From a virus, in the IMG/VR virus record IMGVR_UViG_3300049216_000067: a DNA stretch of 64,000 bases; one strand, written 5' to 3'. Under the pieces are notes generated by a model. It was not told the origin of the DNA and did no database searches. It saw nothing but the letters and a program-made list of their open reading frames with translations. How positions within the stretch are numbered: the first letter of the stretch is position 1; every line of letters starts with the position of its first letter. Shown piece after piece: positions 298 to 56,135 of this stretch. Both the position numbers and the translations under genes were made by a program.

Positions 298-372
298 TGG
301 TGCTCTGTTGCAGATTCGAACTGCATTCTCTGACTTACGAAATCAGCACATCTCCTGTTATGTTTACAGAGC
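298..372 (-). tRNA. tRNA-Thr(CGU)
   Basis: Cloverleaf, loop UU-CGU-AA, encoded CCA. Confidence 0.9.
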
Positions 373-379
373 GTTTCAT

Positions 380-386
380 TATTTAG
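380..386 (-). promoter_or_regulatory. Putative late promoter (CTAAATA)
   Basis: Variant of T4 late TATAAATA just upstream of tRNA-Thr/PilZ gene. Confidence 0.45.
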
Positions 387-393
387 TTTAAAA

Positions 394-609
394 TTGACTG
401 CTCATAGCCGCTGTTCTGTTTCTAATCTATCATTTCTCTAAGCCTTAACCCGATCTTTGCTCCTATACCTTCGGAAACGATCTGTTTAAGTTGCTCACCG
501 CCGTTTACGGTATCAGTAGTACAAACGTCTTTAGACTTCTACAGGGTATCGGTGAGCAGCGAACTTCCTCGATGGGTCTCCTTACCCTCCGCGATAGATC
601 GACAGTCAA
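394..609 (-). ncRNA. rnpB: Minimal bacterial-type RNase P RNA (catalytic domain, reduced S-domain)
   Basis: GAGGAAGUUCGCUGCUC and ACAGAACAGCGGCUAU align to CR-I/CR-V with compensated P4; P1, P2, P3, P5, P6, P15 with GGU, P16 and AGAGAAAUGAU (CR-IV) identifiable. Confidence 0.9.
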
Positions 610-613
610 ATCT

Positions 614-796
614 TTAAACTGAAAACTCGTTTAATAGTTTACTTTCTGTAACTACTCTACTGCGAACCCAACTTTCAAAGGTTGGTGGCGTACCAGCATA
701 GGACATAAAAGCCTTTCGATATTCAGAAAGAAGTCTCATATGTTCATCTGAAGTCAATTGAATGTCTGGTTGTTCGTCAACAATCTTAATCGCCAT
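614..796 (-). CDS. Hypothetical protein
   Basis: ORF; start reassigned to MAIKIV after AGGAG. Confidence 0.6.
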   Translation of the reverse strand: MAIKIVDEQPDIQLTSDEHMRLLSEYRKAFMSYAGTPPTFESWVRSRVVTESKLLNEFSV

Positions 797-1139
797 CTTT
801 ATCTCCTGCTTTGATTTTCTCTTTGTCGATTCTAGCTCTTTCTTTATCGACAATTCTCTGCATTTTAACAAGATCGTTTTTCGCTTTCTCTAAAATAGAA
901 ATAGCCTCGTTGATCTTGTCAATTTTTAAACTGTCCACCTCTTCATAACTTTCAAAATCCCAATTGATTACCCTATTGCAGTCACCGAGAGACATATTGA
1001 AATCAATTTGAAGATAGTCTTTATCGGGTGTTTTACCCTTCTTAACTTTCACATAACCTTTATATCGTATATAGCTACCTGTCTCAAACTGGTCGATGAA
1101 ATCGCCACCGGTCGTTTTAAATAGGATATTTTCATCCAT
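786..1139 (-). CDS. Hypothetical protein
   Basis: ORF; start MDENIL with AGGAG RBS. Confidence 0.65.
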   Translation of the reverse strand: MDENILFKTTGGDFIDQFETGSYIRYKGYVKVKKGKTPDKDYLQIDFNMSLGDCNRVINWDFESYEEVDSLKIDKINEAISILEKAKNDLVKMQRIVDKERARIDKEKIKAGDKDGD

Positions 1140-1521
1140 CACTTGTCTCCTGTTCTTCGTCTGGAAGTATAGCATTTTTATCTACTTCTTTCCAGAGACC
1201 GTCGTCTTTCACTTCGACTTTAATCTTGCGCATTTGGCGTTCTACATTGTCCTGAATGACTGCTTCTTGACCAGTTCTCTTTAAGAATTCCAAATGACGC
1301 CAGTCTTCAAACTTCTTGGTCTTTGCCATGCGCTCAAACGCAAGAGAACGGTTCTGGTGCTGACTTCGATGATCTTCAGCATAACCGTGGGCACCTGAGG
1401 CACGATGGGTGCAATGGACCGCAGAATTGGTTTTATTCTTCTTTTGACCACCGTTGCCGGTGCCGCGAGTGTATGACCAATCGGATGCGGTAACGGAGAA
1501 TACTAATTCACGCTTACTCAT
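1132..1521 (-). CDS. RF-1 domain GGQ peptidyl-tRNA hydrolase (ArfB/PrfH-like)
   Basis: RGTGNGGQKKNKTNSAV..H...RSQHQNR motif set. Confidence 0.85.
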   Translation of the reverse strand: MSKRELVFSVTASDWSYTRGTGNGGQKKNKTNSAVHCTHRASGAHGYAEDHRSQHQNRSLAFERMAKTKKFEDWRHLEFLKRTGQEAVIQDNVERQMRKIKVEVKDDGLWKEVDKNAILPDEEQETSDG

Positions 1522-1792
1522 GTTTTGCACTCAAATTTAATTCTTGCATATATTCGTCAGAATATTTTGCATTCACTGTAAAGATTGATCCTGCTGATCT
1601 GCTCATTGGTTGCACAGCAGCCAACTCGATCATTTGTTCGCGAAATTTCTTTTTAATGAATTCGTGTAGTTTCTGTCGAGTTTCCGGAGTATTTGGCATC
1701 CCTACGAAATCTTCAAAACAAGTCGGATTAGAAGCTATGATTTCATAGAATTCATCAGCATCTAAAGTTTCGGATTCAGTTTCTTTTTTCAT
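1514..1792 (-). CDS. Small protein containing a gp23-like VQPM segment
   Basis: ELAAVQPMSRSAGSIFTVNAKY resembles DVCGVQPMTGPTGLIFAMRSKY of gp23 in this window. Confidence 0.6.
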   Translation of the reverse strand: MKKETESETLDADEFYEIIASNPTCFEDFVGMPNTPETRQKLHEFIKKKFREQMIELAAVQPMSRSAGSIFTVNAKYSDEYMQELNLSAKHE

Positions 1793-1953
1793 TGTTTCAC
1801 CAGATCACGAATGTATTTTTGATACTCAATCGGTTTAGCTAAAAAGCTTTTATAGAGAGCTAAACTTTCACCTTTTAGAAGAAACTGGAGACCACGATGC
1901 TCCATCATGACAAAACGGCAATCAAGATTTATATTTACTTGAATTGCGTACAT
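1789..1953 (-). CDS. Hypothetical protein
   Basis: Start moved to MYAIQV to avoid overlap with tRNA-Ser. Confidence 0.5.
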   Translation of the reverse strand: MYAIQVNINLDCRFVMMEHRGLQFLLKGESLALYKSFLAKPIEYQKYIRDLVKQ

Positions 1954-1957
1954 AGAT

Positions 1958-2045
1958 TGGCGGGTAGCAGAAGAATCGAACTCCAACACCTTTCGGCGTC
2001 CCTTTCTTTAGCAAAGAAGCCTGGTTCCAAACCAGATTACTACCC
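1958..2045 (-). tRNA. tRNA-Ser(GCU)
   Basis: Long variable arm, G73, CCA. Confidence 0.85.
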
Positions 2046-2058
2046 TAATCTCCTATAT

Positions 2059-2649
2059 TTAGTTCAACTTGTAAGCTGGATTTTTCCAGACCCTCGATGA
2101 CTTAGGAATCTTCGAAAGCAAATATTCCATCTGATCGTACAACACTTTATGGTTGTCCAAAAGAAGCTTTTCCTGCAAGTTAGGTGCATACGGAACATAC
2201 AACAATTGCATACCTGCTTGTTCCGGTGTCCTGTCTGCTTTACCGTGATTACATGACTTGCAAGCAGAAACAGTGTTCACCCAAGTGTGACGACCACCAT
2301 GAGACTTAGGAATCACATGGTCAATAGTCAACTGATTGTACTTGAATTGAATTCCACAATATGCGCAGATGTAAGCATCACGAGCATAAAGAATATCACG
2401 CTCAGCATAAATCGTTTCTCGTGTGTAGAAATCTCGTCCAAACACAGGACCGTCAACCATAATGATTGAAGAGACTTCAATCTTTGATCGTTCACCCTTA
2501 GAATTCATGCCACCATAGAAAGTGTGAACAGGAGAACCAAGATTACAGATGACCTTACCCAAAGCGTAGTAACGCGCAGACTCTTCTTCGAGTCCGGTCC
2601 ATTCGCGTGGGTTTCCTGATTTGTCAACAACGAGAACTTCTTTCGACAT
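2059..2649 (-). CDS. HNH endonuclease
   Basis: RD.YICAYCG, TIDHVIPKSHGG, NTVSACKSCNHGK. Confidence 0.9.
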   Translation of the reverse strand: MSKEVLVVDKSGNPREWTGLEEESARYYALGKVICNLGSPVHTFYGGMNSKGERSKIEVSSIIMVDGPVFGRDFYTRETIYAERDILYARDAYICAYCGIQFKYNQLTIDHVIPKSHGGRHTWVNTVSACKSCNHGKADRTPEQAGMQLLYVPYAPNLQEKLLLDNHKVLYDQMEYLLSKIPKSSRVWKNPAYKLN

Positions 2650-2704
2650 GTTCTAACTCCTTCACTCACAAGTGCATGATTTATTTAGGAACAAGATTCT
2701 AAAT

Positions 2705-2779
2705 TGGAGTACTGGACTGGATTCGAACCAGCATGGGACTATTTTGCAGACAGCCGCGTGACCTTTCCGCCACCAGTAC
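2705..2779 (-). tRNA. tRNA-Cys(GCA)
   Basis: Cloverleaf, U73, CCA. Confidence 0.9.
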
Positions 2780-2801
2780 ATTCGTAAGGAGTATAACTTT
2801 G

Positions 2802-3122
2802 TTATCGAGCTATGACAAGGTTCTTTGGAGGGACTTCAATTTTCGTCTTTCCATTGATCTTGTTGTAATGAGCTAGAATCTGATCTTCTGGCTCAGTAAT
2901 GTAGACAATCTTATCTTCAAGAATTTCAATCTCTTCTTTTGCCAAAGTTCCCCATGGAATGAAAGCAAACATGATCTGCGTCTTACCGGCTGCATCAGGT
3001 GGTCCCTGCTGTGGGATAACAAGAATCGCATCTGTAAGTGAATAACCTGTTTTTAAGGTTTGAACAGTTGCAAGTAATTCTTCACCAGTAACAAGCTTGA
3101 TTAATTTGACGCTAGATTCCAT
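2802..3122 (-). CDS. Conserved T4-like phage hypothetical protein (Sm-like fold likely)
   Basis: VKLIKLVTGEELLA...FIPW...Y pattern typical of T4-like phages. Confidence 0.6.
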   Translation of the reverse strand: MESSVKLIKLVTGEELLATVQTLKTGYSLTDAILVIPQQGPPDAAGKTQIMFAFIPWGTLAKEEIEILEDKIVYITEPEDQILAHYNKINGKTKIEVPPKNLVIAR

Positions 3123-3146
3123 GATAATTCCTTTAGGTAAAGCTTT

Positions 3147-3169
3147 ATTATACAGTATTTTTGTTTAAT
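3147..3169 (-). promoter_or_regulatory. Promoter ATTAA-N12-TATAAT
   Basis: Member of recurrent promoter class (see findings). Confidence 0.6.
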
Positions 3170-3176
3170 AAGAAAT

Positions 3177-3252
3177 TGGAGCGGATGAAGGGACTCGAAC
3201 CCTCGACATCTTCCTTGGCAAGGAAGCGCAATAGCCGCTATGCGACATCCGC
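3177..3252 (-). tRNA. tRNA-Gly(GCC)
   Basis: Cloverleaf, CCA. Confidence 0.92.
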
Positions 3253-3258
3253 GTAAAC

Positions 3259-3333
3259 TGGTGCTCCAACACAGAATCGAACTGTGACTTGGTCCTTACC
3301 AAGGACCTGTAATAACCATTTTACTATAGGAGC
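3259..3333 (-). tRNA. tRNA-Thr(GGU)
   Basis: Cloverleaf, CCA. Confidence 0.9.
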
Positions 3334-3391
3334 GATACATTCAGATTATCCTTTTAATTGCGACTGTTTCCCCCCCCCCCCGCAATGGATT

Positions 3392-3465
3392 TGGTGGTCG
3401 TACTAGGAATCGAGCCTAGGTATCTTCCATGTCATAGAAGTGTTCTACCATTGAACTATACAACC
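3392..3465 (-). tRNA. tRNA-Val(GAC)
   Basis: Cloverleaf, variant T-loop, CCA. Confidence 0.85.
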
Positions 3466-3473
3466 AAAACCGT

Positions 3474-3650
3474 TTAGTGAAAGCCGTGCAAATACGGCAA
3501 CAGTTGGACTACCAACCATATGACCAACGCAACGATGGCAACACCGTTTAGAATTTGCTTGAACGTTTCCTGCAAAGGAGCCTTATTGACAAGCCATAGC
3601 AAAAAACCTGCAACAAAAATCACAATCAAAATGTGGATAATGTCCACCAT
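3474..3650 (-). CDS. Small two-helix membrane protein (Thivi_2564-like)
   Basis: Two hydrophobic segments; GGAG RBS. Confidence 0.65.
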   Translation of the reverse strand: MVDIIHILIVIFVAGFLLWLVNKAPLQETFKQILNGVAIVALVIWLVVQLLPYLHGFH

Positions 3651-3683
3651 AAATTTCTCCATTGTAAATTAAACGTTCGAAAT

Positions 3684-3759
3684 TGGTCCCCTTGCCAGAA
3701 CTCGAATCTGGAATAAAACGTTCGTAGCGTTTCGTGATATCCGGTTTCACCACAAGGAG
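3684..3759 (-). tRNA. tRNA-Arg(ACG)
   Basis: Cloverleaf, CCA. Confidence 0.9.
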
Positions 3760-3840
3760 AGATACTGGTTACGTTTCCAGTTCATGTAGGATCATCTGGT
3801 TTGCCTAAGCCTAACAGATAAACACTCGCCATGACGATTT

Positions 3841-3913
3841 TGGTAGCGGTCGCTGGTAATGCTCCAGTTCTACAGGTTATGAGCCTGTCGTCAACTTTTT
3901 CGACTTCCCCGCT
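3841..3913 (-). tRNA. tRNA-Met(CAU), atypical
   Basis: ACAGG-CUCAUAA-CCUGU arm, CCA; non-canonical T-loop and acceptor mismatches. Confidence 0.7.
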
Positions 3914-3925
3914 ATAATCTTTATA

Positions 3926-4246
3926 TGATGTTTGGTGCTGATTTTTCGAGTAGTTGTCAAGCTACTATCTTTCTTTTTAGGTCCGGTGGGTTTATGACTT
4001 ACACATCTCCACTCTGTTGCAACAAAGTTTCGCAGATATGAGAGGAATTTTCCTCCAACGTAGTCGTCTTCTGACTGTTTATGGTCTACCAACTACGCAG
4101 CGATCACAGGCGGGTTCCGTCTTTTTCCTGTTACTTTCTGTCATTACCTTACCTAATCATACTCAAACCTTCTCGACAGCCCGTGAGAAGTACCTTCCTG
4201 CCGAAGAACGCAGTTTATCAGTCACAAAAAACCAACCCAAACATCA
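3926..4246 (-). ncRNA. Unassigned ~320-nt structured RNA
   Basis: ~22-bp terminal helix plus multiple internal hairpins; sits between two tRNA genes. Confidence 0.7.
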
Positions 4247-4254
4247 CATTAAAC

Positions 4255-4329
4255 TGGTGGTGATACTGAGAATCGAACTCAGATCTATGGCTTATGAGAC
4301 CACTGCCCTAGCCGTTGGACGATATCACC
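4255..4329 (-). tRNA. tRNA-Met or Ile2 (CAU)
   Basis: Cloverleaf, CCA. Confidence 0.85.
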
Positions 4330-4420
4330 GTAAATTGTTGGGACCTATCGCTGCCCGTGCGAGTATTTTACGAATAATACCATTCGTCTCTACAAACACT
4401 GACGCTCGTTGAGAAGTAAT

Positions 4421-4496
4421 TGGTGGAACTGGTAGGAGTCGAACCTACATCTCGTCCTCTTCAGGGACACGCTAAAGCCACCTCAGCTACAGTTCC
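4421..4496 (-). tRNA. tRNA-Phe(GAA)
   Basis: Cloverleaf, CCA. Confidence 0.9.
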
Positions 4497-4501
4497 AAAT
4501 T

Positions 4502-4578
4502 TGGTGCCCAATGAGGGAGTCGAACCCTCAAAACCCAGCTTCTTAGACTGGTACGTATGCCAATTCCGTCAACTGGGC
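4502..4578 (-). tRNA. tRNA-Leu(AAG), short variable loop
   Basis: CCAGU-CUAAGAA-GCUGG; Leu-type D-loop GGAAUUGGCAUAC. Confidence 0.85.
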
Positions 4579-4587
4579 AAATAAAAT

Positions 4588-4664
4588 TGGTGCGCCTGAC
4601 AGGAGTCGAACCTGCAAGATTTTGGTTCTAAGCCAAACATGTTTGCCAATTTCATCACAAGCGC
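4588..4664 (-). tRNA. tRNA-Leu(UAG), short variable loop
   Basis: Cloverleaf, CCA. Confidence 0.88.
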
Positions 4665-4670
4665 ATAATT

Positions 4671-4756
4671 TGGCGGAAAGCTGACGAATCGAACGCCACA
4701 AGTTTCCCTGCGATGTGCTTTCTAGACACTCAGAGACCCAGTCTCTATAACTTTCC
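4671..4756 (-). tRNA. tRNA-Ser(AGA)
   Basis: Loop CU-AGA-AA, long variable arm, G73 CCA. Confidence 0.82.
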
Positions 4757-4760
4757 AAAT

Positions 4761-4846
4761 TGGCGGAAGTGTGACGAATCGAACGCCACTAGCGAACCAG
4801 CGATCAGTTTTCAAGACTGCCCTCATCCCAGACGAGATACACTTCC
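4761..4846 (-). tRNA. tRNA-Ser(UGA)
   Basis: Long variable arm, G73 CCA. Confidence 0.88.
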
Positions 4847-4851
4847 AAAAT

Positions 4852-4927
4852 TGGGGCGGCTAACGGGACTTGAACCCGTACTGACTCTTTCACAGAGAGT
4901 GGTGCTAACCATTACACTATAGTCGCC
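4852..4927 (-). tRNA. tRNA-His(GUG)
   Basis: G-1:C73 pair, CCA. Confidence 0.92.
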
Positions 4928-4933
4928 ATAAAT

Positions 4934-5007
4934 TGGATCATCCTCTAAGATTCGAACTTAGGTCACTACTTTCAGAGAGTAGGGTACTGCCGCTGTACGA
5001 AGGATGA
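4934..5007 (-). tRNA. tRNA-Gln(CUG)
   Basis: U1-A72, cloverleaf, CCA. Confidence 0.9.
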
Positions 5008-5014
5008 ATAAACT

Positions 5015-5089
5015 TGGTGTTCCTAGAGGGAATCGAACCCTCGTCGTGGGACTGAGAAACCCACATCCTAGCCTCTAGAAGATAGGAAC
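5015..5089 (-). tRNA. tRNA-Glu(CUC)
   Basis: Glu-type D arm, loop UU-CUC-AG, CCA. Confidence 0.82.
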
Positions 5090-5094
5090 AAATT

Positions 5095-5202
5095 TGGCCC
5101 CTCAGAATGGATTTGCACCACCTTCGTCGGCAAGGACGACGCTCTTTTAAATGATCCACCCGGACATGTGATCAAACAATCTTCTTTTGAGCTACTTCGG
5201 GA
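5095..5202 (-). ncRNA. tRNA-like RNA with hairpin inserted in D-loop
   Basis: GCUC/GAGC D-stem enclosing ~40 nt, CGUCG/CGACG arm, T-like arm, GCCA end. Confidence 0.55.
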
Positions 5203-5250
5203 AATAAAGAAAGACATTTTGGCTCTAATTGCCTGGTGTGTTTCACTAAA

Positions 5251-5324
5251 TGGTCAGGATAGCAGGAGTTGAACCTGCGCCGCGAGCTTCCAAAACTCGA
5301 ACGCTACCGTAACGCTTTACCCTG
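5251..5324 (-). tRNA. tRNA-Pro(UGG)
   Basis: C1-G72, CCA. Confidence 0.88.
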
Positions 5325-5395
5325 AGATGCGTGAATGACCTGGGTCAATCACGACTTTTGTGTCCCGCTTAGATTTGTCTAGCGGCTCGCACGTT

Positions 5396-5472
5396 TGGTG
5401 CCCAATGCGAGAGTCGAACTCGCAAAACCGAATTTTTGAGATTCGTATGTATGCCAATTCCATCAATTGGGC
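5396..5472 (-). tRNA. tRNA-Leu(CAA), short variable loop
   Basis: Cloverleaf, CCA. Confidence 0.88.
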
Positions 5473-5482
5473 GAACTTAAAT

Positions 5483-5558
5483 TGGATCACCGTGTACGAT
5501 TCGAACGTACATTTTCCTCGTTCAAAGCGAAGCGTCCTACCAATTAGACGAACAGTGA
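5483..5558 (-). tRNA. tRNA-Gln(UUG)
   Basis: Cloverleaf, CCA. Confidence 0.9.
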
Positions 5559-5565
5559 ATAAACT

Positions 5566-5640
5566 TGGCGATCCCAAGGAGAATCGAACTCCTACTTTCT
5601 CTTAGACAGAGAGAAATCATAGCCATTAGATCATGGGACC
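5566..5640 (-). tRNA. tRNA-Asp(GUC)
   Basis: Cloverleaf, G73 CCA. Confidence 0.9.
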
Positions 5641-5646
5641 ATAAAG

Positions 5647-5721
5647 TGGTACGTCTACACGGACTCGAACCGCGATTCTCCGCTAATCAGGCAGATGTCT
5701 TTGCCATTGGACGATAGACGC
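5647..5721 (-). tRNA. tRNA-Ile(GAU)
   Basis: Cloverleaf, CCA. Confidence 0.88.
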
Positions 5722-5724
5722 ATA

Positions 5725-5877
5725 TTAAAGTGAAAGCAATTCTCGTAGAGAATTAAATCTCTTTCCTGATTCATCAAGAAAGTAGACTTGGACAGTTTTT
5801 CCACCATCAACGACTGTGCATCGAGTGATGTGTTTACCGTCTACTACGATTGGATATTTTCTAGTGATCTGAGCCAT
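5725..5877 (-). CDS. 50-aa protein inside tRNA array (not in ORF track)
   Basis: TAAGGAG RBS; MAQITRKYPIVVDGKHITRCTVVDGGKTVQVYFLDESGKRFNSLRELLSL fills the inter-tRNA gap. Confidence 0.65.
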   Translation of the reverse strand: MAQITRKYPIVVDGKHITRCTVVDGGKTVQVYFLDESGKRFNSLRELLSL

Positions 5878-5897
5878 GAGAAAATCTCCTTACTGAT

Positions 5898-5973
5898 TGG
5901 TGGGTCCTGTGGGGTATGATCCCACATCTCTGCGCTTAAAAGGCGTGACTCTTTCCATTTGAGTTAAGGACCC
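5898..5973 (-). tRNA. tRNA-Lys(UUU)
   Basis: Cloverleaf, variant T-loop, CCA. Confidence 0.85.
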
Positions 5974-5977
5974 GAAT

Positions 5978-6025
5978 TGGAGCGGCACCGACAGGTTAGT
6001 GTCGTAAGCTCTAGAACCGTGCCGC
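5978..6025 (-). ncRNA. 48-nt tRNA minihelix-like RNA with Gly-type acceptor
   Basis: GCGGCAC/GUGCCGC + UCCA, CGACA/UGUCG stem, no D or anticodon arm. Confidence 0.6.
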
Positions 6026-6031
6026 ATAAAG

Positions 6032-6106
6032 TGGTTGACCCTGAGAATTTCGAAATCTCGACTTTTGCCGTGTAAAGACAACGCTCTGCCTCTGAGCTAA
6101 GGGTCA
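6032..6106 (-). tRNA. tRNA-Val(UAC)
   Basis: Cloverleaf, CCA. Confidence 0.88.
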
Positions 6107-6112
6107 ATAAAT

Positions 6113-6188
6113 TGGTGTCCCGAACAGGAATCGAACCTGTACCTTAACGCTTAGGAGGCGTAAACATTATCCATTGTGCTACCGGGAC
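6113..6188 (-). tRNA. tRNA-Arg(CCU)
   Basis: Cloverleaf, CCA. Confidence 0.88.
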
Positions 6189-6193
6189 GTAAT

Positions 6194-6276
6194 TGGCTCT
6201 CTCGGAAGGATTCGGACCTCCATCACTTACCGTTCGCGAAAACGGCAGTAAGCTCTCGATATTGAGCTACAAGAGA
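6194..6276 (-). ncRNA. tRNA-like RNA with elongated anticodon arm
   Basis: Normal acceptor/D/T arms, GCCA; arm UUAC-UG-CCGUU-UUCGCG-AACG-GUAA. Confidence 0.6.
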
Positions 6277-6283
6277 ATAAACT

Positions 6284-6367
6284 TGGTGGCTCTGATGGGA
6301 TTTGAACCGCATAGCCTTCTGGTTTGATGCTATCTAACCTGACGCTCTACTATTGAGCTACAGAACC
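6284..6367 (-). ncRNA. tRNA-like RNA with enlarged anticodon loop
   Basis: Acceptor GGUUCUG/CAGAGCC, ACCA; GGUU-AGAUAGCAUCA-AACC arm. Confidence 0.6.
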
Positions 6368-6372
6368 GAAAT

Positions 6373-6447
6373 TGGAGCGGAAGACGAGACTCGAACTCGT
6401 ATACTCTTGGTTGGAAGCCAGGGGCACAGCCTTTGTACCACATCCGC
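6373..6447 (-). tRNA. tRNA-Gly(UCC)
   Basis: Cloverleaf, U73 CCA. Confidence 0.9.
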
Positions 6448-6453
6448 ATAAAT

Positions 6454-6528
6454 TGGTACTCCGTAGGGGTGTCGATCCCCTTCCTACGCCTTGAAAGGGC
6501 GTCGATCTAGCCGGTAATCTAACAGAGC
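6454..6528 (-). tRNA. tRNA-Glu(UUC)
   Basis: Cloverleaf, CCA. Confidence 0.88.
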
Positions 6529-6722
6529 ATAATCCGATATTTTAGCGTCGGCTTTAGCGCATTTTTGGGGCAGACCTAAGTCTAACCACTCCACCATCTA
6601 GTTTTTGAAAACTAGAAAATTAAAATGTGATCTACTCACCCTCTCACCATACTGAACCGAGAGAGGCTACGAAATGGTTCAGCCTGGATAGCTACTTGTA
6701 GATCTTTGCTATCGTATGATCG

Positions 6723-6798
6723 TGGTCAAGGTGGCGAGACTCGAACTCGCGATTCCATGCGCCCAAGGCATGTGGTATAGCCGCTAACCGACACCCTG
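6723..6798 (-). tRNA. tRNA-Pro(UGG), second divergent copy
   Basis: Cloverleaf, CCA. Confidence 0.9.
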
Positions 6799-6904
6799 AA
6801 AATATATTGAACCGGTTACGTCATCCGGTGTTGCTTGCGGCAACCGTAATGCCCACTCCTGCCGGGTGGTGGGCTGTCTCTACCCGCAAGATAGAGACTT
6901 TGTT

Positions 6905-6983
6905 TGGTGCCTCCAGCGGGAGTCGAACCCGCAAGTAACCCGCGTTTTAAGTGCAGTGCATATGCCAATTCTGCTACAGAGGC
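6905..6983 (-). tRNA. tRNA-Leu(UAA), short variable loop
   Basis: Cloverleaf, CCA. Confidence 0.85.
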
Positions 6984-6987
6984 GATT

Positions 6988-7083
6988 TGGTAGTCCCACC
7001 AGGACTCGAACCTGGATCATGCGGTAATCTGCCGCCAAAGCCACTTTATAAGGGTGGTGTTTTAACCATTAAACTATAGGACC
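6988..7083 (-). tRNA. tRNA-Ile(UAU) with long variable arm
   Basis: Loop CU-UAU-AA; variable arm GCGG-CAGAUUA-CCGC; CCA. Confidence 0.82.
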
Positions 7084-7088
7084 GAATT

Positions 7089-7179
7089 TGGTGGTGCATC
7101 CAGGTAACGATCCTGGCTAGGCTTATTAGGCTCACCGGTTTTACAGACCGGTCCCCATCCTTAAGGGTTTTACTGCACC
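7089..7179 (-). tRNA. tRNA-Tyr(GUA)
   Basis: Long variable arm, CCA. Confidence 0.85.
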
Positions 7180-7186
7180 ATAATTT

Positions 7187-7261
7187 TGGACCCGCTGGCC
7201 GGATTCGAACCGACGTTCATTGAGGTAGAAGCTCAAGGCACATCCTCTATACCACAGCGAG
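7187..7261 (-). tRNA. tRNA-Arg(UCU)
   Basis: Cloverleaf, CCA. Confidence 0.9.
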
Positions 7262-7593
7262 ATTATTTCTTTCTTCGTAGTGTACGATAGCGTGACAATT
7301 GGCACGCAGCACAACGCACTTCGCGATTTCTTCTTTCATCCTATGAATTGAATAGCCTTGCTTATGCATTTGGCTAATTTCAATATCTTTTTGTGATGGA
7401 TCAGAATGATGAAATTGCAATGTTGCCGGATGATTTTGTCCACATTTAGCGCACATTAAATTTTTTTGAATTCTTGAATCCATTCTTTCAATATAGATCG
7501 TCTTTCTTTGATTTTAGAGATTGCATGTTGTTGGTTCTTAGCGTACCAATCTCTACGAGATTGTCTGACTTTTTTTATATTTCTTATCGACAT
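7247..7593 (-). pseudogene. Small HNH-family endonuclease, frameshifted in an A7 run
   Basis: MSIRNIKK...EWIQEFKK joins CAKCG..LQFHH..ANCH frame if one A is added at 7461-7467. Confidence 0.65.
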
Positions 7594-7595
7594 GA

Positions 7596-7629
7596 CTCCA
7601 AACCTTATTTTGTTGTTTGGAGTATTTAG
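7596..7629 (-). promoter_or_regulatory. Late promoter plus RBS-occluding hairpin
   Basis: CTAAATA followed by CTCCAAAC-N11-GTTTGGAG ending 2 nt before ATG. Confidence 0.6.
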
Positions 7630-7706
7630 TGGCAGGTTGTGACGGTGACGATCCGCCTTTGATAGTTTTGGAGACTACGGTCTTAGCCAACGTAGACGAA
7701 CAACCC
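7630..7706 (-). tRNA. tRNA-Trp(CCA)
   Basis: Cloverleaf, G73 CCA. Confidence 0.88.
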
Positions 7707-7712
7707 ATAAAT

Positions 7713-7787
7713 TGGTGCTCTCACTCGGAATCGAACTGAGTTCTCAGGCTTACAAAACCCGTGCATCGCCAACAATGCTTTGAGAGC
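7713..7787 (-). tRNA. tRNA-Thr(UGU)
   Basis: Cloverleaf, CCA. Confidence 0.9.
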
Positions 7788-7827
7788 GTAACGACGGTTC
7801 TCTACTCTAGTACCGACAACACGTATT

Positions 7828-7901
7828 TGGTGGACCGTGAGAGAATCGAACTCTCAATAGTGACTTGCAAGGCCACTGTTATCCCATTTAACTAACAGCC
7901 C
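7828..7901 (-). tRNA. tRNA-Ala(UGC)
   Basis: G3-U70, CCA. Confidence 0.92.
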
Positions 7902-7907
7902 AAATTT

Positions 7908-7983
7908 TGGTGGGTCCGCAGGGATTTGAACCCTGATCGTGCTCCTTAAGAGGGAGATATAATAGCCGTTATACGACAGACCC
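7908..7983 (-). tRNA. tRNA-Lys(CUU)
   Basis: Cloverleaf, CCA. Confidence 0.9.
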
Positions 7984-8048
7984 GAATAAGACCATAACAA
8001 TCCGCGCCAGGGTGAAGCGTTTCTAATGTTATGGATAAAACCCTGCAA

Positions 8049-8119
8049 GATCCTTGACAGGAATTGAACCTGCTTCTCCCGATTCAAATTCGGGCGACTT
8101 ACCGTTTGTCTTCGAGGAC
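8049..8119 (-). tRNA. tRNA-Gln(UUG)-like, no encoded CCA, possibly degenerate
   Basis: CCCGA-AUUUGAA-UCGGG, good T arm, one acceptor mismatch. Confidence 0.6.
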
Positions 8120-8250
8120 AGATCTTTTTTACGTGTTAGTCTCACGATCCGGACTCGGACATTAGGATTCAATAATGGAACTGTTGGCACATACGATGAC
8201 GAGTCGATGTTTAGGTTGTCAGCCTTAGTCAACAGTTCCGCGTTAATTTT

Positions 8251-8322
8251 CTCCAGCACAAGGAATCGAACCTTGCCACAAATCGTTAACAGCGATCCCG
8301 CACACCTTGCGCGTCTACTGGA
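8251..8322 (-). tRNA. tRNA-Asn(GUU), no encoded CCA
   Basis: U1-A72, G73, loop CU-GUU-AA. Confidence 0.85.
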
Positions 8323-8340
8323 ATAAATCGAAAATAAAGT

Positions 8341-9890: not shown

Positions 9891-10214
9891 TCATCGACGG
9901 TTCTTGTAACGTTCCTCTAATTTTTTAACATTAGCACGAATAATTTCCTGCCCTTCGATCCCATGACGATAAGCAATCATCATCAAATAATATTGAACGT
10001 CACCTAATTCCTTGATCAACTTTTTCTTGTCAACTTTAGTGACAGATCCTTGATCACGCTGCGCTTTTTTAAGAAGTTCTGTGACTTCACCGGCTTCACC
10101 TGGAAGACCTAAAGACATGACAAAGTCATCAGCCAAACTTAATTTCTTTTTCTTGTCAGTCCACATGCTTGCGACCCAAGCCTGGTATTCATTCAGAGTC
10201 ATTTCTTTTTTCAT
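9891..10214 (-). CDS. MazG-like nucleotide pyrophosphohydrolase
   Basis: LGLPGEAGEV..KK, KELGDV.YY, NVKKL..RY. Confidence 0.85.
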   Translation of the reverse strand: MKKEMTLNEYQAWVASMWTDKKKKLSLADDFVMSLGLPGEAGEVTELLKKAQRDQGSVTKVDKKKLIKELGDVQYYLMMIAYRHGIEGQEIIRANVKKLEERYKNRR

Positions 10215-55607: not shown

Positions 55608-56135
55608 CTATTTGGCGTATCCATTAGGGAATTTTGGTCTGTTGGTACCGTTCAGGCGCGGACCAACCTTATTGATTCTACCGCGCCTCCAACCTTCCGG
55701 AATGAAGCCGTCTCTACATTGCATAGATGTGATTCCATCGGTTATCCAGAAGAAACCATTGTTGTGAGTGTGACCTATCATCCAAGGAAGAGGTTTGCCT
55801 TTCTTAGCTTTGGAAATAGCCTCAGCTATCTCTGGTGTGCATGGATGTCCGTCGCCTCCAGGAGTCATATTATAGCCACCACCGTAGCTTCTATATTCAG
55901 CTATAAAATATTTCTCCATTTCCTTTGCTGATAACTCATCAAATGCAGTGAAGATATGATCAACAATGAAAGTTGACCAACCATGTTTTCTTATAGATTG
56001 ATGAAGTATATAAAACGAGCCACCTTTAGCAGAACTTTGATGTGCTGCAAGTCTCTGGGTTAGGCTAGTGGACGTTATACCGACATAAATCTTGCCGGTG
56101 TTCCTGTTTGTCAGACGGTAAATGATATAGTGCAT
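55608..56135 (-). CDS. GIY-YIG (Seg-like) homing endonuclease
   Basis: IIY...YVGIT, R...H, E, GYNMT.GG, NUMOD-like tail. Confidence 0.88.
   Translation of the reverse strand: MHYIIYRLTNRNTGKIYVGITSTSLTQRLAAHQSSAKGGSFYILHQSIRKHGWSTFIVDHIFTAFDELSAKEMEKYFIAEYRSYGGGYNMTPGGDGHPCTPEIAEAISKAKKGKPLPWMIGHTHNNGFFWITDGITSMQCRDGFIPEGWRRGRINKVGPRLNGTNRPKFPNGYAK

Follow-up and report, generated by a model that had tools for sequence, protein, structure and literature searches.

The stretch of DNA analysed here (the window) comprises 64,000 nucleotides of the IMG/VR virus record IMGVR_UViG_3300049216_000067. It encodes a DNA polymerase, a ribonucleotide reductase, a DnaB-like helicase, an SbcC-like protein and a gp23-like major head protein, as well as RegA, a clamp-loader subunit, endonuclease VII, UvsY and GIY-YIG/HNH endonucleases; by this gene set the window belongs to a T4-like phage. 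Positions 301–8323 form an island of 33–36 transfer RNA (tRNA) genes. The subject of this work is an RNA gene in this region, which is identified from its sequence as the gene of a miniature ribonuclease P (RNase P) RNA derived from the bacterial class A. It lies at positions 394–609 (perhaps 385–620) of the minus strand, inside a 241-nt gap (373–613) that is the sole non-coding gap between an 85-amino-acid open reading frame (ORF, 614–871) and the gene of tRNA-Thr(CGU). In the original prediction the element was placed at the end of the tRNA array. As tRNA-Thr(CGU) still follows downstream, the element is located near the end of the island and not at it.

The fold of the RNA is summarized in Table 1. 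A script check of the minus strand found every predicted helix, i.e. P1, P2, P3 (GGGU/ACCC), P4, P5, P6 and P15 with its GGU, at its expected place. P4 crosses P2, and P6 crosses both P5 and P15, so that P4 and P6 are pseudoknots. The P4/CR-I segment aligns to the Rfam family RF00010 (class A) without gaps and the two positions that differ are compensated by their partners, in agreement with what had been predicted. The 5'- and 3'-flanks of P1 are complementary to each other, and in one relative (L040) P1 is continuous over 19 bp; the RNA may thus span ~385–620. Helix P18 is absent, and GGC runs directly into UUAGAGAAAUG (443–431). In the RF00010 alignments of the relatives the 24-position P18 block is collapsed to 0. 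The specificity domain (S-domain; P7–P14 with CR-II/CR-III) is replaced by a stub of 44 nt, in which no counterpart of the CR-II/CR-III elbow-binding module is seen. Both the lack of P18 and an S-domain of about 45 nt had been foreseen. The minimum-free-energy z-score of the element is −0.69; this value is unremarkable because the fold rests on two pseudoknots.

Table 1. Features of the RNA gene in 5' to 3' order and the tRNA gene that follows it (all on the minus strand; positions in the window)
Feature	Position	Remarks
RNA core, P1 5' strand to P1 3' strand	394–609	216 nt; only match of models R1/R2 in the window
P1 extension	385–620	AGUUUAAAG (620–612) can pair with UUUUAAACU (393–385) across a 2-nt bulge (script complementarity)
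P1 5' strand, UUGACUG	603–609	7 of 7 pairs change on both sides in 20 relatives; 93% of cells paired
P2 5' strand, AUCUAUCG	592–599	6 of 8 pairs covary; seven variants, each complementary to its own partner
P3 hairpin	570–591	6 of 7 pairs covary
CR-I and P4 5' strand, GAGGAAGUUCGCUG	557–570	CR-I-like GAGGAAGUUC; ungapped alignment to RF00010 consensus GAGGAAAGUCCGG; AGU (565–563), bulged U (562), CGCUG (561–557)
P5 5' strand, CUCACCG	550–556	Pairs with 494–500
P6 pseudoknot 5' strand, AUACC	545–549	100% paired; covariation at 4 of 5 pairs in the well-aligned set
Stub in S-domain position	501–544	44 nt, two small hairpins; internal loop GGAG ... CGUUnnnAC conserved across the clade
P5 3' strand, CGGUGAG	494–500	Pairs with 550–556
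J5/15, CAA	491–493	Equivalent to E. coli C247–A249; aligned to GCAA of RF00010 in relatives; invariant except for CGA in a few members
P15-P16-P17 arm	444–490	P15 CUUAA (490–486)/UUAAG (448–444), ten variants, 30 of 30 cells paired; P16 482–479/455–452, 4 of 4 pairs covary; P17 476–473/463–460; GGGU (451–448) lies on the 3' side of internal loop L15, CGGGU aligned to CGGGUa of RF00010
P6 pseudoknot 3' strand, GGUAU	465–469	Inside the P17 loop; partner of 545–549
J15/2 (CR-IV-like), GCUUAGAGAAAUG	431–443	Relatives match CuAGAugAAUG of RF00010
P2 3' strand, UGAUAGAU	425–432	Partner of 592–599; begins within AAUG of the J15/2 motif
CR-V-like ACAGAA and P4 3' strand	406–419	ACAGAA (419–414) identical to RF00010 consensus; CAGCG-GCU (413–406) pairs with the P4 5' side
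P1 3' strand, CAGUCAA	394–400	Partner of 603–609
tRNA-Thr(CGU)	301–372	Rfam tRNA 49.5 bits, missed by ARAGORN; CCA encoded; 21 nt downstream of the RNA core

Related elements were found at ~40 loci in IMG/VR, in JGI metagenomes and in one cultured phage, and represent roughly 30 distinct sequences. The contigs are viral and 20–416 kb long, and the copies lie mostly within dense tRNA arrays. A near-identical copy (L001, from an exact-word scan; on a 13,992-bp IMG/VR contig) has a single loop base changed out of 216, with greater divergence in the flanking ORF, which argues that the element is under selection. A syntenic element on a 166.7-kb contig (L003) was reached via the neighbouring RF-1-domain protein (74% protein identity); the sequences of its P1, P2, P3, P4, P5, P6 and P16 differ from those of the window yet still pair. 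A covariance model built from the window and L001 (R1) scores L003 at 51 bits (E 4e-15). Further members came from scans of IMG/VR and the JGI metagenomes for motifs common to the known copies, and L021 from a pattern scan. Five sequences from the clade of the window went into a second model (R2). In the covariance-model search of the 64-kb window the RNA site is the single match, and among the relatives the R2 scores are graded: 233 bits for L052, 220 for L040, 146 for L038, 94 for L073, 78 for L056, 76 for L070, 63 for L042, 54 for L050, 51 for L043 and 41 for L021. L044 is scored weakly (16.9 bits, E 0.0014), with the same motifs present in it.

When the window was compared by blastn with 50,697 phage records, matches were obtained only at its tRNAs, and the window RNA element, L044 and L042 gave none. 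L050 was the only query element with a match, which led to the cultured Stenotrophomonas phage vB_SmaS-DLP_6 (DLP6, KU682439.2). The DLP6 member (~105775–106017, equal to L054:2306–2548) is unannotated, scores 83.7 bits with R2 (E 1e-25) and sits between a hypothetical coding sequence and tRNA-Arg(CCG), just upstream of the tRNA; an Rfam scan at this place reports nothing. L003 and DLP6 carry an insert at the P18 site, which in DLP6 is an extra hairpin. The stub region of the larger relatives is ~90–130 nt long, and a part of it aligns to P7–P11 of RF00010; the S-domain columns of RF00010 are deleted even in the alignment of L050. Two candidates were rejected: L015 matches by chance within GC-rich coding sequence, and the match in L004 (12 bits) falls inside the RF-1 gene and is spurious.

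Several members are interrupted or have unusual surroundings. On the metagenome contig Ga0058863_10146724 (L053:348–1184) the RNA is split in two at the P18 site, with ~640 nt between the 5' part (~348–500, up to and including the P15 3' strand) and the 3' part (~1140–1184, UUAGAGAAAUG...ACAGAA...GCUAU). The insert carries a GIY-YIG homing-endonuclease ORF of 199 amino acids (551–1150), P2 and P4 still pair across it, and Rfam finds no group I intron there. L032:3234–3535 contains a ~140-nt insertion within the first hairpin of the stub, the remaining RNA being intact. A tRNA T-arm-like sequence, GGUACGGGUUCAAAUCCGUC, is present in the variable part of the S-domain region of L021 (200–225). 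Transfer-messenger RNA (tmRNA)-like genes or tRNAs with the CUA (amber-reading) anticodon occur near the RNase P-like RNA at L073:5069–5412 and 9933–10005, L066:1869–1941 and L063:5794–6091; the tmRNA-like call in L063 overlaps two tRNA-Lys genes.

Covariation was examined with models that contained nested helices only. P4 and P6 were left unpaired in them, so that the alignment was not fitted to either pseudoknot. In the plain MAFFT alignment A4 (5 sequences) 94.2% of the cells are paired, compared with 30–42% when slid, and 25 pairs change on both sides. The model-based alignments give 93.9% (31–43% when slid) with 50 of 65 pairs changing on both sides for A6 (10 sequences), and 91.7% (31–46%) with 53 of 65 for A7 (20 sequences). 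None of 500 shuffles reaches the observed values on any of the three. P4 is 100% paired on all of them; on A7 this amounts to 144 cells, and 5 of its 8 pairs covary. Its pair 46–203 occurs as G-C, C-G and A-U and pair 47–202 as U-G and C-G; this covariation sets the register of P4 to the one known from E. coli, with a bulged U between 3 bp and 5 bp, and thereby upholds the bulged U of the original prediction. P6 is completely paired on A4 and A6 (4 of 5 pairs covary) and occurs as AUACC/GGUAU, GUUUC/GAAAC, GGAAC/GUUCC, GAAGC/GCUUC and GAGAC/GUCUC. Its lower value on A7 (59%) arises because the unmodelled loop columns are out of register in the distant members; the P6 loop-loop pairing (CCUGAC/GUCAGG) is still kept in the 149-nt member L050. 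In a test free of strand selection the registers were set by sequence anchors alone and not by complementarity. Here P4b is present in 8 variants with 39 of 40 cells paired (59% for mismatched partners), and P15 (Table 1) is to be compared with 41% for mismatched partners. The fold is far beyond chance. Covariation of P4 and P6 among homologs had been proposed as a check, and the pairs of both helices do covary in the alignments, those of P4 on A7 (20 sequences) and those of P6 on A4 and A6.

The homology to RNase P RNA is established via a two-step profile chain. R2, which contains the window clade only, finds L021 (E 4e-11), L050 (5.5e-15) and L043 (3e-14), and these match RF00010 with 94.7 bits (E 3e-28), 50.9 bits (E 3e-13) and 44.1 bits (E 6.5e-11), respectively, the latter two being small members. 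The larger members (group B) match RF00010 end to end (L044 99.2, L021 94.7, L047 92.3 and L051 88.9 bits; E 1e-29 to 3e-26), just under its gathering score of 100 bits, with P18 deleted and P12–P14 shortened. The window RNA itself has the P4 with a bulged U, the closing helices P1-P2-P3, P5 running into J5/15, whose A is conserved (E. coli A248), and the P15-P16-P17 arm with the L15 GGU and P6, all typical for class A; it stays below the RF00010 gathering score and has neither the specificity domain nor P18. It is truncated like the members of RF02357 (at least 60 bits, archaeal lineage) and is not one of them. The element is a bacterial-type, virus-encoded RNase P RNA without S-domain and P18, and it belongs to a family found in many large tRNA-rich phages. 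The predicted virus-encoded RNase P RNA consisting of the catalytic domain (C-domain) only is thus borne out by the T4-like gene set, by the covariation and by the relatives that match RF00010. Full-text literature searches yielded no description of a phage-encoded RNase P RNA.

The elements that contact the substrate and the metal (the bulged U of P4, the J5/15 adenosines, the L15 GGU, J15/2 and ACAGAA) are invariant or correctly covarying across the family. Of the 31 window tRNAs found by Rfam, 30 have an encoded 3' CCA, and the leaders that separate the window tRNAs are only ~6–10 nt long. RnpA (PF00825) is absent from the 41 window ORFs of 85–190 amino acids, as had been stated in the original prediction, and was not found in the L003, L021 and L034 records, including two relative genomes that are 98–99% complete. 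From the kept contact elements, the CCA-encoding tRNAs and the lack of a detected RnpA gene we infer that the element is probably a working RNase P RNA that uses the RnpA of the host. The RNA would be transcribed together with the minus-strand tRNA island and released partly via an RNase P cut at the tRNA-Thr just downstream. The distance from the RNA gene to the downstream tRNA is 21 nt in the window, ~8 nt in DLP6 and ~9 nt in L021, so that RNase P cleavage at the 5' end of this tRNA would help to form the 3' end of the RNA itself. The intact catalytic domain would bind host RnpA, and the RNA would cut the 5' leaders of the densely packed, CCA-encoding pre-tRNAs of the phage, the 3' RCCA docking on the L15 GGU and the P4 metal site being used. 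The likely benefit would be an extra or host-independent capacity for tRNA maturation during infection. A particular fit to substrates with non-canonical T/D loops, which had been suggested too, is not supported: the T-loop is canonical UUCRA in 32 of 36 window tRNAs, and G18G19 is present in 35 of 36.

Several points weigh against a working RNase P RNA. No promoter-like site was found near the RNA gene, and its expression would therefore depend on read-through transcription. Loss of the S-domain removes the contacts to the T-loop/elbow of the substrate, which costs much affinity in bacterial P RNAs. CR-I of the phage RNA is off the bacterial consensus at two P4 positions (AAG-U-C to AGU-U-C), with the pairing compensated. 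RF00010 gives no match to the window at gathering, nor to positions 250–750 at E≤10, and Rfam is silent on it; the best of 4227 Rfam families on 385–620 is RNaseP-T, with 15.1 bits and E 0.25 (covering 395–608). The proposed check with the Rfam models thus leaves the window uncalled and succeeds with its relatives, down to E 1e-29. Finally, the sole viral precedent found, an RNA of camelpox virus with secondary-structure similarity to RNase P RNA, showed no pre-tRNA processing in vitro (PMC3001073).

The inactive camelpox RNA was discussed as a possible decoy (PMC3001073), and the phage RNA may similarly be a non-catalytic look-alike, serving as a decoy or sponge for host RnpA or pre-tRNAs and redirecting or throttling the tRNA maturation of the host. 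All C-domain regions known to bind RnpA (P2/P3, P15, J15/2 and CR-V) are kept and no RnpA gene was found in the phage, both of which would suit such a role. A decoy needs a protein-binding surface only, yet the L15 GGU, CAA, the bulged U of P4 and ACAGAA are invariant across ~30 diverged members. Moreover, the phage's own tRNAs encode CCA, and throttling of RNase P would harm a phage that brings 33–36 tRNA genes. We therefore regard a decoy as unlikely.

It also appears improbable that the RNA is an active RNase P independent of host RnpA, working alone or with an unrecognised phage protein such as the product of a small conserved upstream ORF. Such a partner is brought to mind by the order of RF-1-domain ORF, 129-amino-acid ORF and RNA, which is kept in L003 (74% protein identity), and by P0001 and P0002, which have no Pfam family; the archaeal type T RNA works with non-RnpA proteins (PMC7191817). 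Most family members, however, are located between tRNAs and have no conserved protein neighbour, and the loci of the RF-1 protein L004–L014 have no RNA copy within 4 kb. In addition, bacterial C-domain RNA by itself catalyses poorly at physiological salt. The lack of a significant Rfam match for the window itself and the z-score of −0.69 might point to an rnpB captured from a host and now decaying as a pseudogene, or to an unrelated structured RNA that resembles RNase P RNA by chance. Both readings are contradicted by the covariation and the profile chain and are most improbable, given the compensatory changes in every helix with both pseudoknots included, the near-identity of the L001 copy while its flanks diverge, and the graded relatives that reach RF00010 at E 1e-29.

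A wider picture can be drawn, which is about as likely as not. Large phages would have a working RNase P of their own, the smallest natural one of bacterial type. It would cleave pre-tRNAs without an elbow-reading domain, via CCA/L15 and a borrowed or phage protein, and maintain the tRNA supply while the RNase P of the host is limiting, has been shut off or is attacked by a defence system; split copies might reassemble through P1, P2 and P4.

RNase P RNA is one of the two universal ribozymes and has so far been treated as a cellular or organellar one, to which a conserved phage family would add a viral branch. Tentatively, tRNA-rich phages would bring along a tRNA-maturation function together with their tRNAs. 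The family constitutes a natural series of minimal catalytic cores, from ~300 nt down to ~149 nt, on which it can be tested directly how much of the RNA the recognition of pre-tRNA and its cleavage require. As Rfam is silent on both the window and DLP6, standard annotation misses such genes, and an unannotated ribozyme may be present in thousands of phage genomes. DLP6 with its host Stenotrophomonas maltophilia D1571 is a ready experimental system.

The surroundings of the RNA gene on the minus strand contain further features. The ORF directly downstream of tRNA-Thr (1–297) has a weak match to the PilZ domain (22.7 bits, cut-off 22.5) and is truncated at the edge of the window. The tRNA island encodes a small protein that has an RF-1 domain and a GGQ motif (1132–1530, PF00472, E 1e-13); it resembles peptidyl-tRNA hydrolase or an ArfB-type rescue factor and is present at 13 related viral loci. 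Three tRNA-like genes (301–372, 6287–6367 and 8049–8119) were found by Rfam and not by ARAGORN, and of the 31 only the last of them lacks an encoded CCA. An unusual length (92–96 nt) is seen for tRNA-Ile(UAU) in the window (6988–7083) as well as in several related phages, at L003:460–555, L004:5200–5295 and L054:1269–1360 (DLP6), which points to a conserved insertion or to an extra arm of great length. The tRNA island also contains an HNH endonuclease ORF (2059–2649), and a GIY-YIG/NUMOD3 homing endonuclease (55608–56135) is encoded near the head gene.

Comparison with the class A RNA of E. coli (RF00010; M1 RNA/rnpB, 377 nt) demonstrates the same order and pairing of P1–P6, P15, P16 and P17. 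CR-I reads GAGGAAAGUCC in RF00010 and GAGGAAGUUC in the phage RNA. The pattern GCAA-P15-AAAYAG is common to both (AAAUAG in RF00010, AAACAG in the window); CGGGU-a-P15' of RF00010 corresponds to CGGGU-U-P15' of the window, CuAGAugAAUG to UUAGAGAAAUG (both UAGAnnAAUG), and ACAGAA-P4'-GGCUUA to ACAGAA-P4'-GGCUAU. The phage RNA differs from class A in its length (216 nt versus ~350–400), in the loss of P18, in the 44-nt stub in place of P7–P14 and in that no rnpA was found in the phage. Engineered P RNAs show that the bacterial C-domain together with RnpA can cleave pre-tRNA. Those RNAs are laboratory deletions, whereas the phage family is natural and virus-encoded and extends down to ~149 nt (L050).

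The end of the T4 tRNA cluster is annotated with rnaC and rnaD (RNAs C and D), small stable RNAs of unknown function. They were considered as degenerate relatives and rejected, since R2 scores no higher than 7.6 bits in the T4 region, and this match falls on a tRNA. Among cellular RNAs, the reduced P RNA of Mycoplasma fermentans is devoid of P12 (PMC8172020) and, unlike the phage RNA, keeps most of the S-domain; the diverged RNase P RNAs of candidate phyla radiation (CPR) bacteria are bacterial and not phage (PMC8172020). The camelpox RNA is likewise encoded by a virus, but by a eukaryotic one without tRNA genes, while the phage case is built upon covariation, the profile links to RF00010 and the adjacent substrates. 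A further likeness in architecture is the type T RNase P RNA known from Thermoproteaceae (RF02357; Lai et al. 2010, cited in PMC7191817), which is ~200 nt long and misses nearly the whole S-domain. RF02357 is the best Rfam match of the window as well as of L052 and L040, spanning the element with 15–20 bits, while the gathering score is 60. Type T belongs to archaea and uses archaeal proteins, whereas the phage RNA has the bacterial L15 GGU and P15-P17 arm and groups with the relatives that match RF00010. Its reduction has therefore occurred independently of type T.

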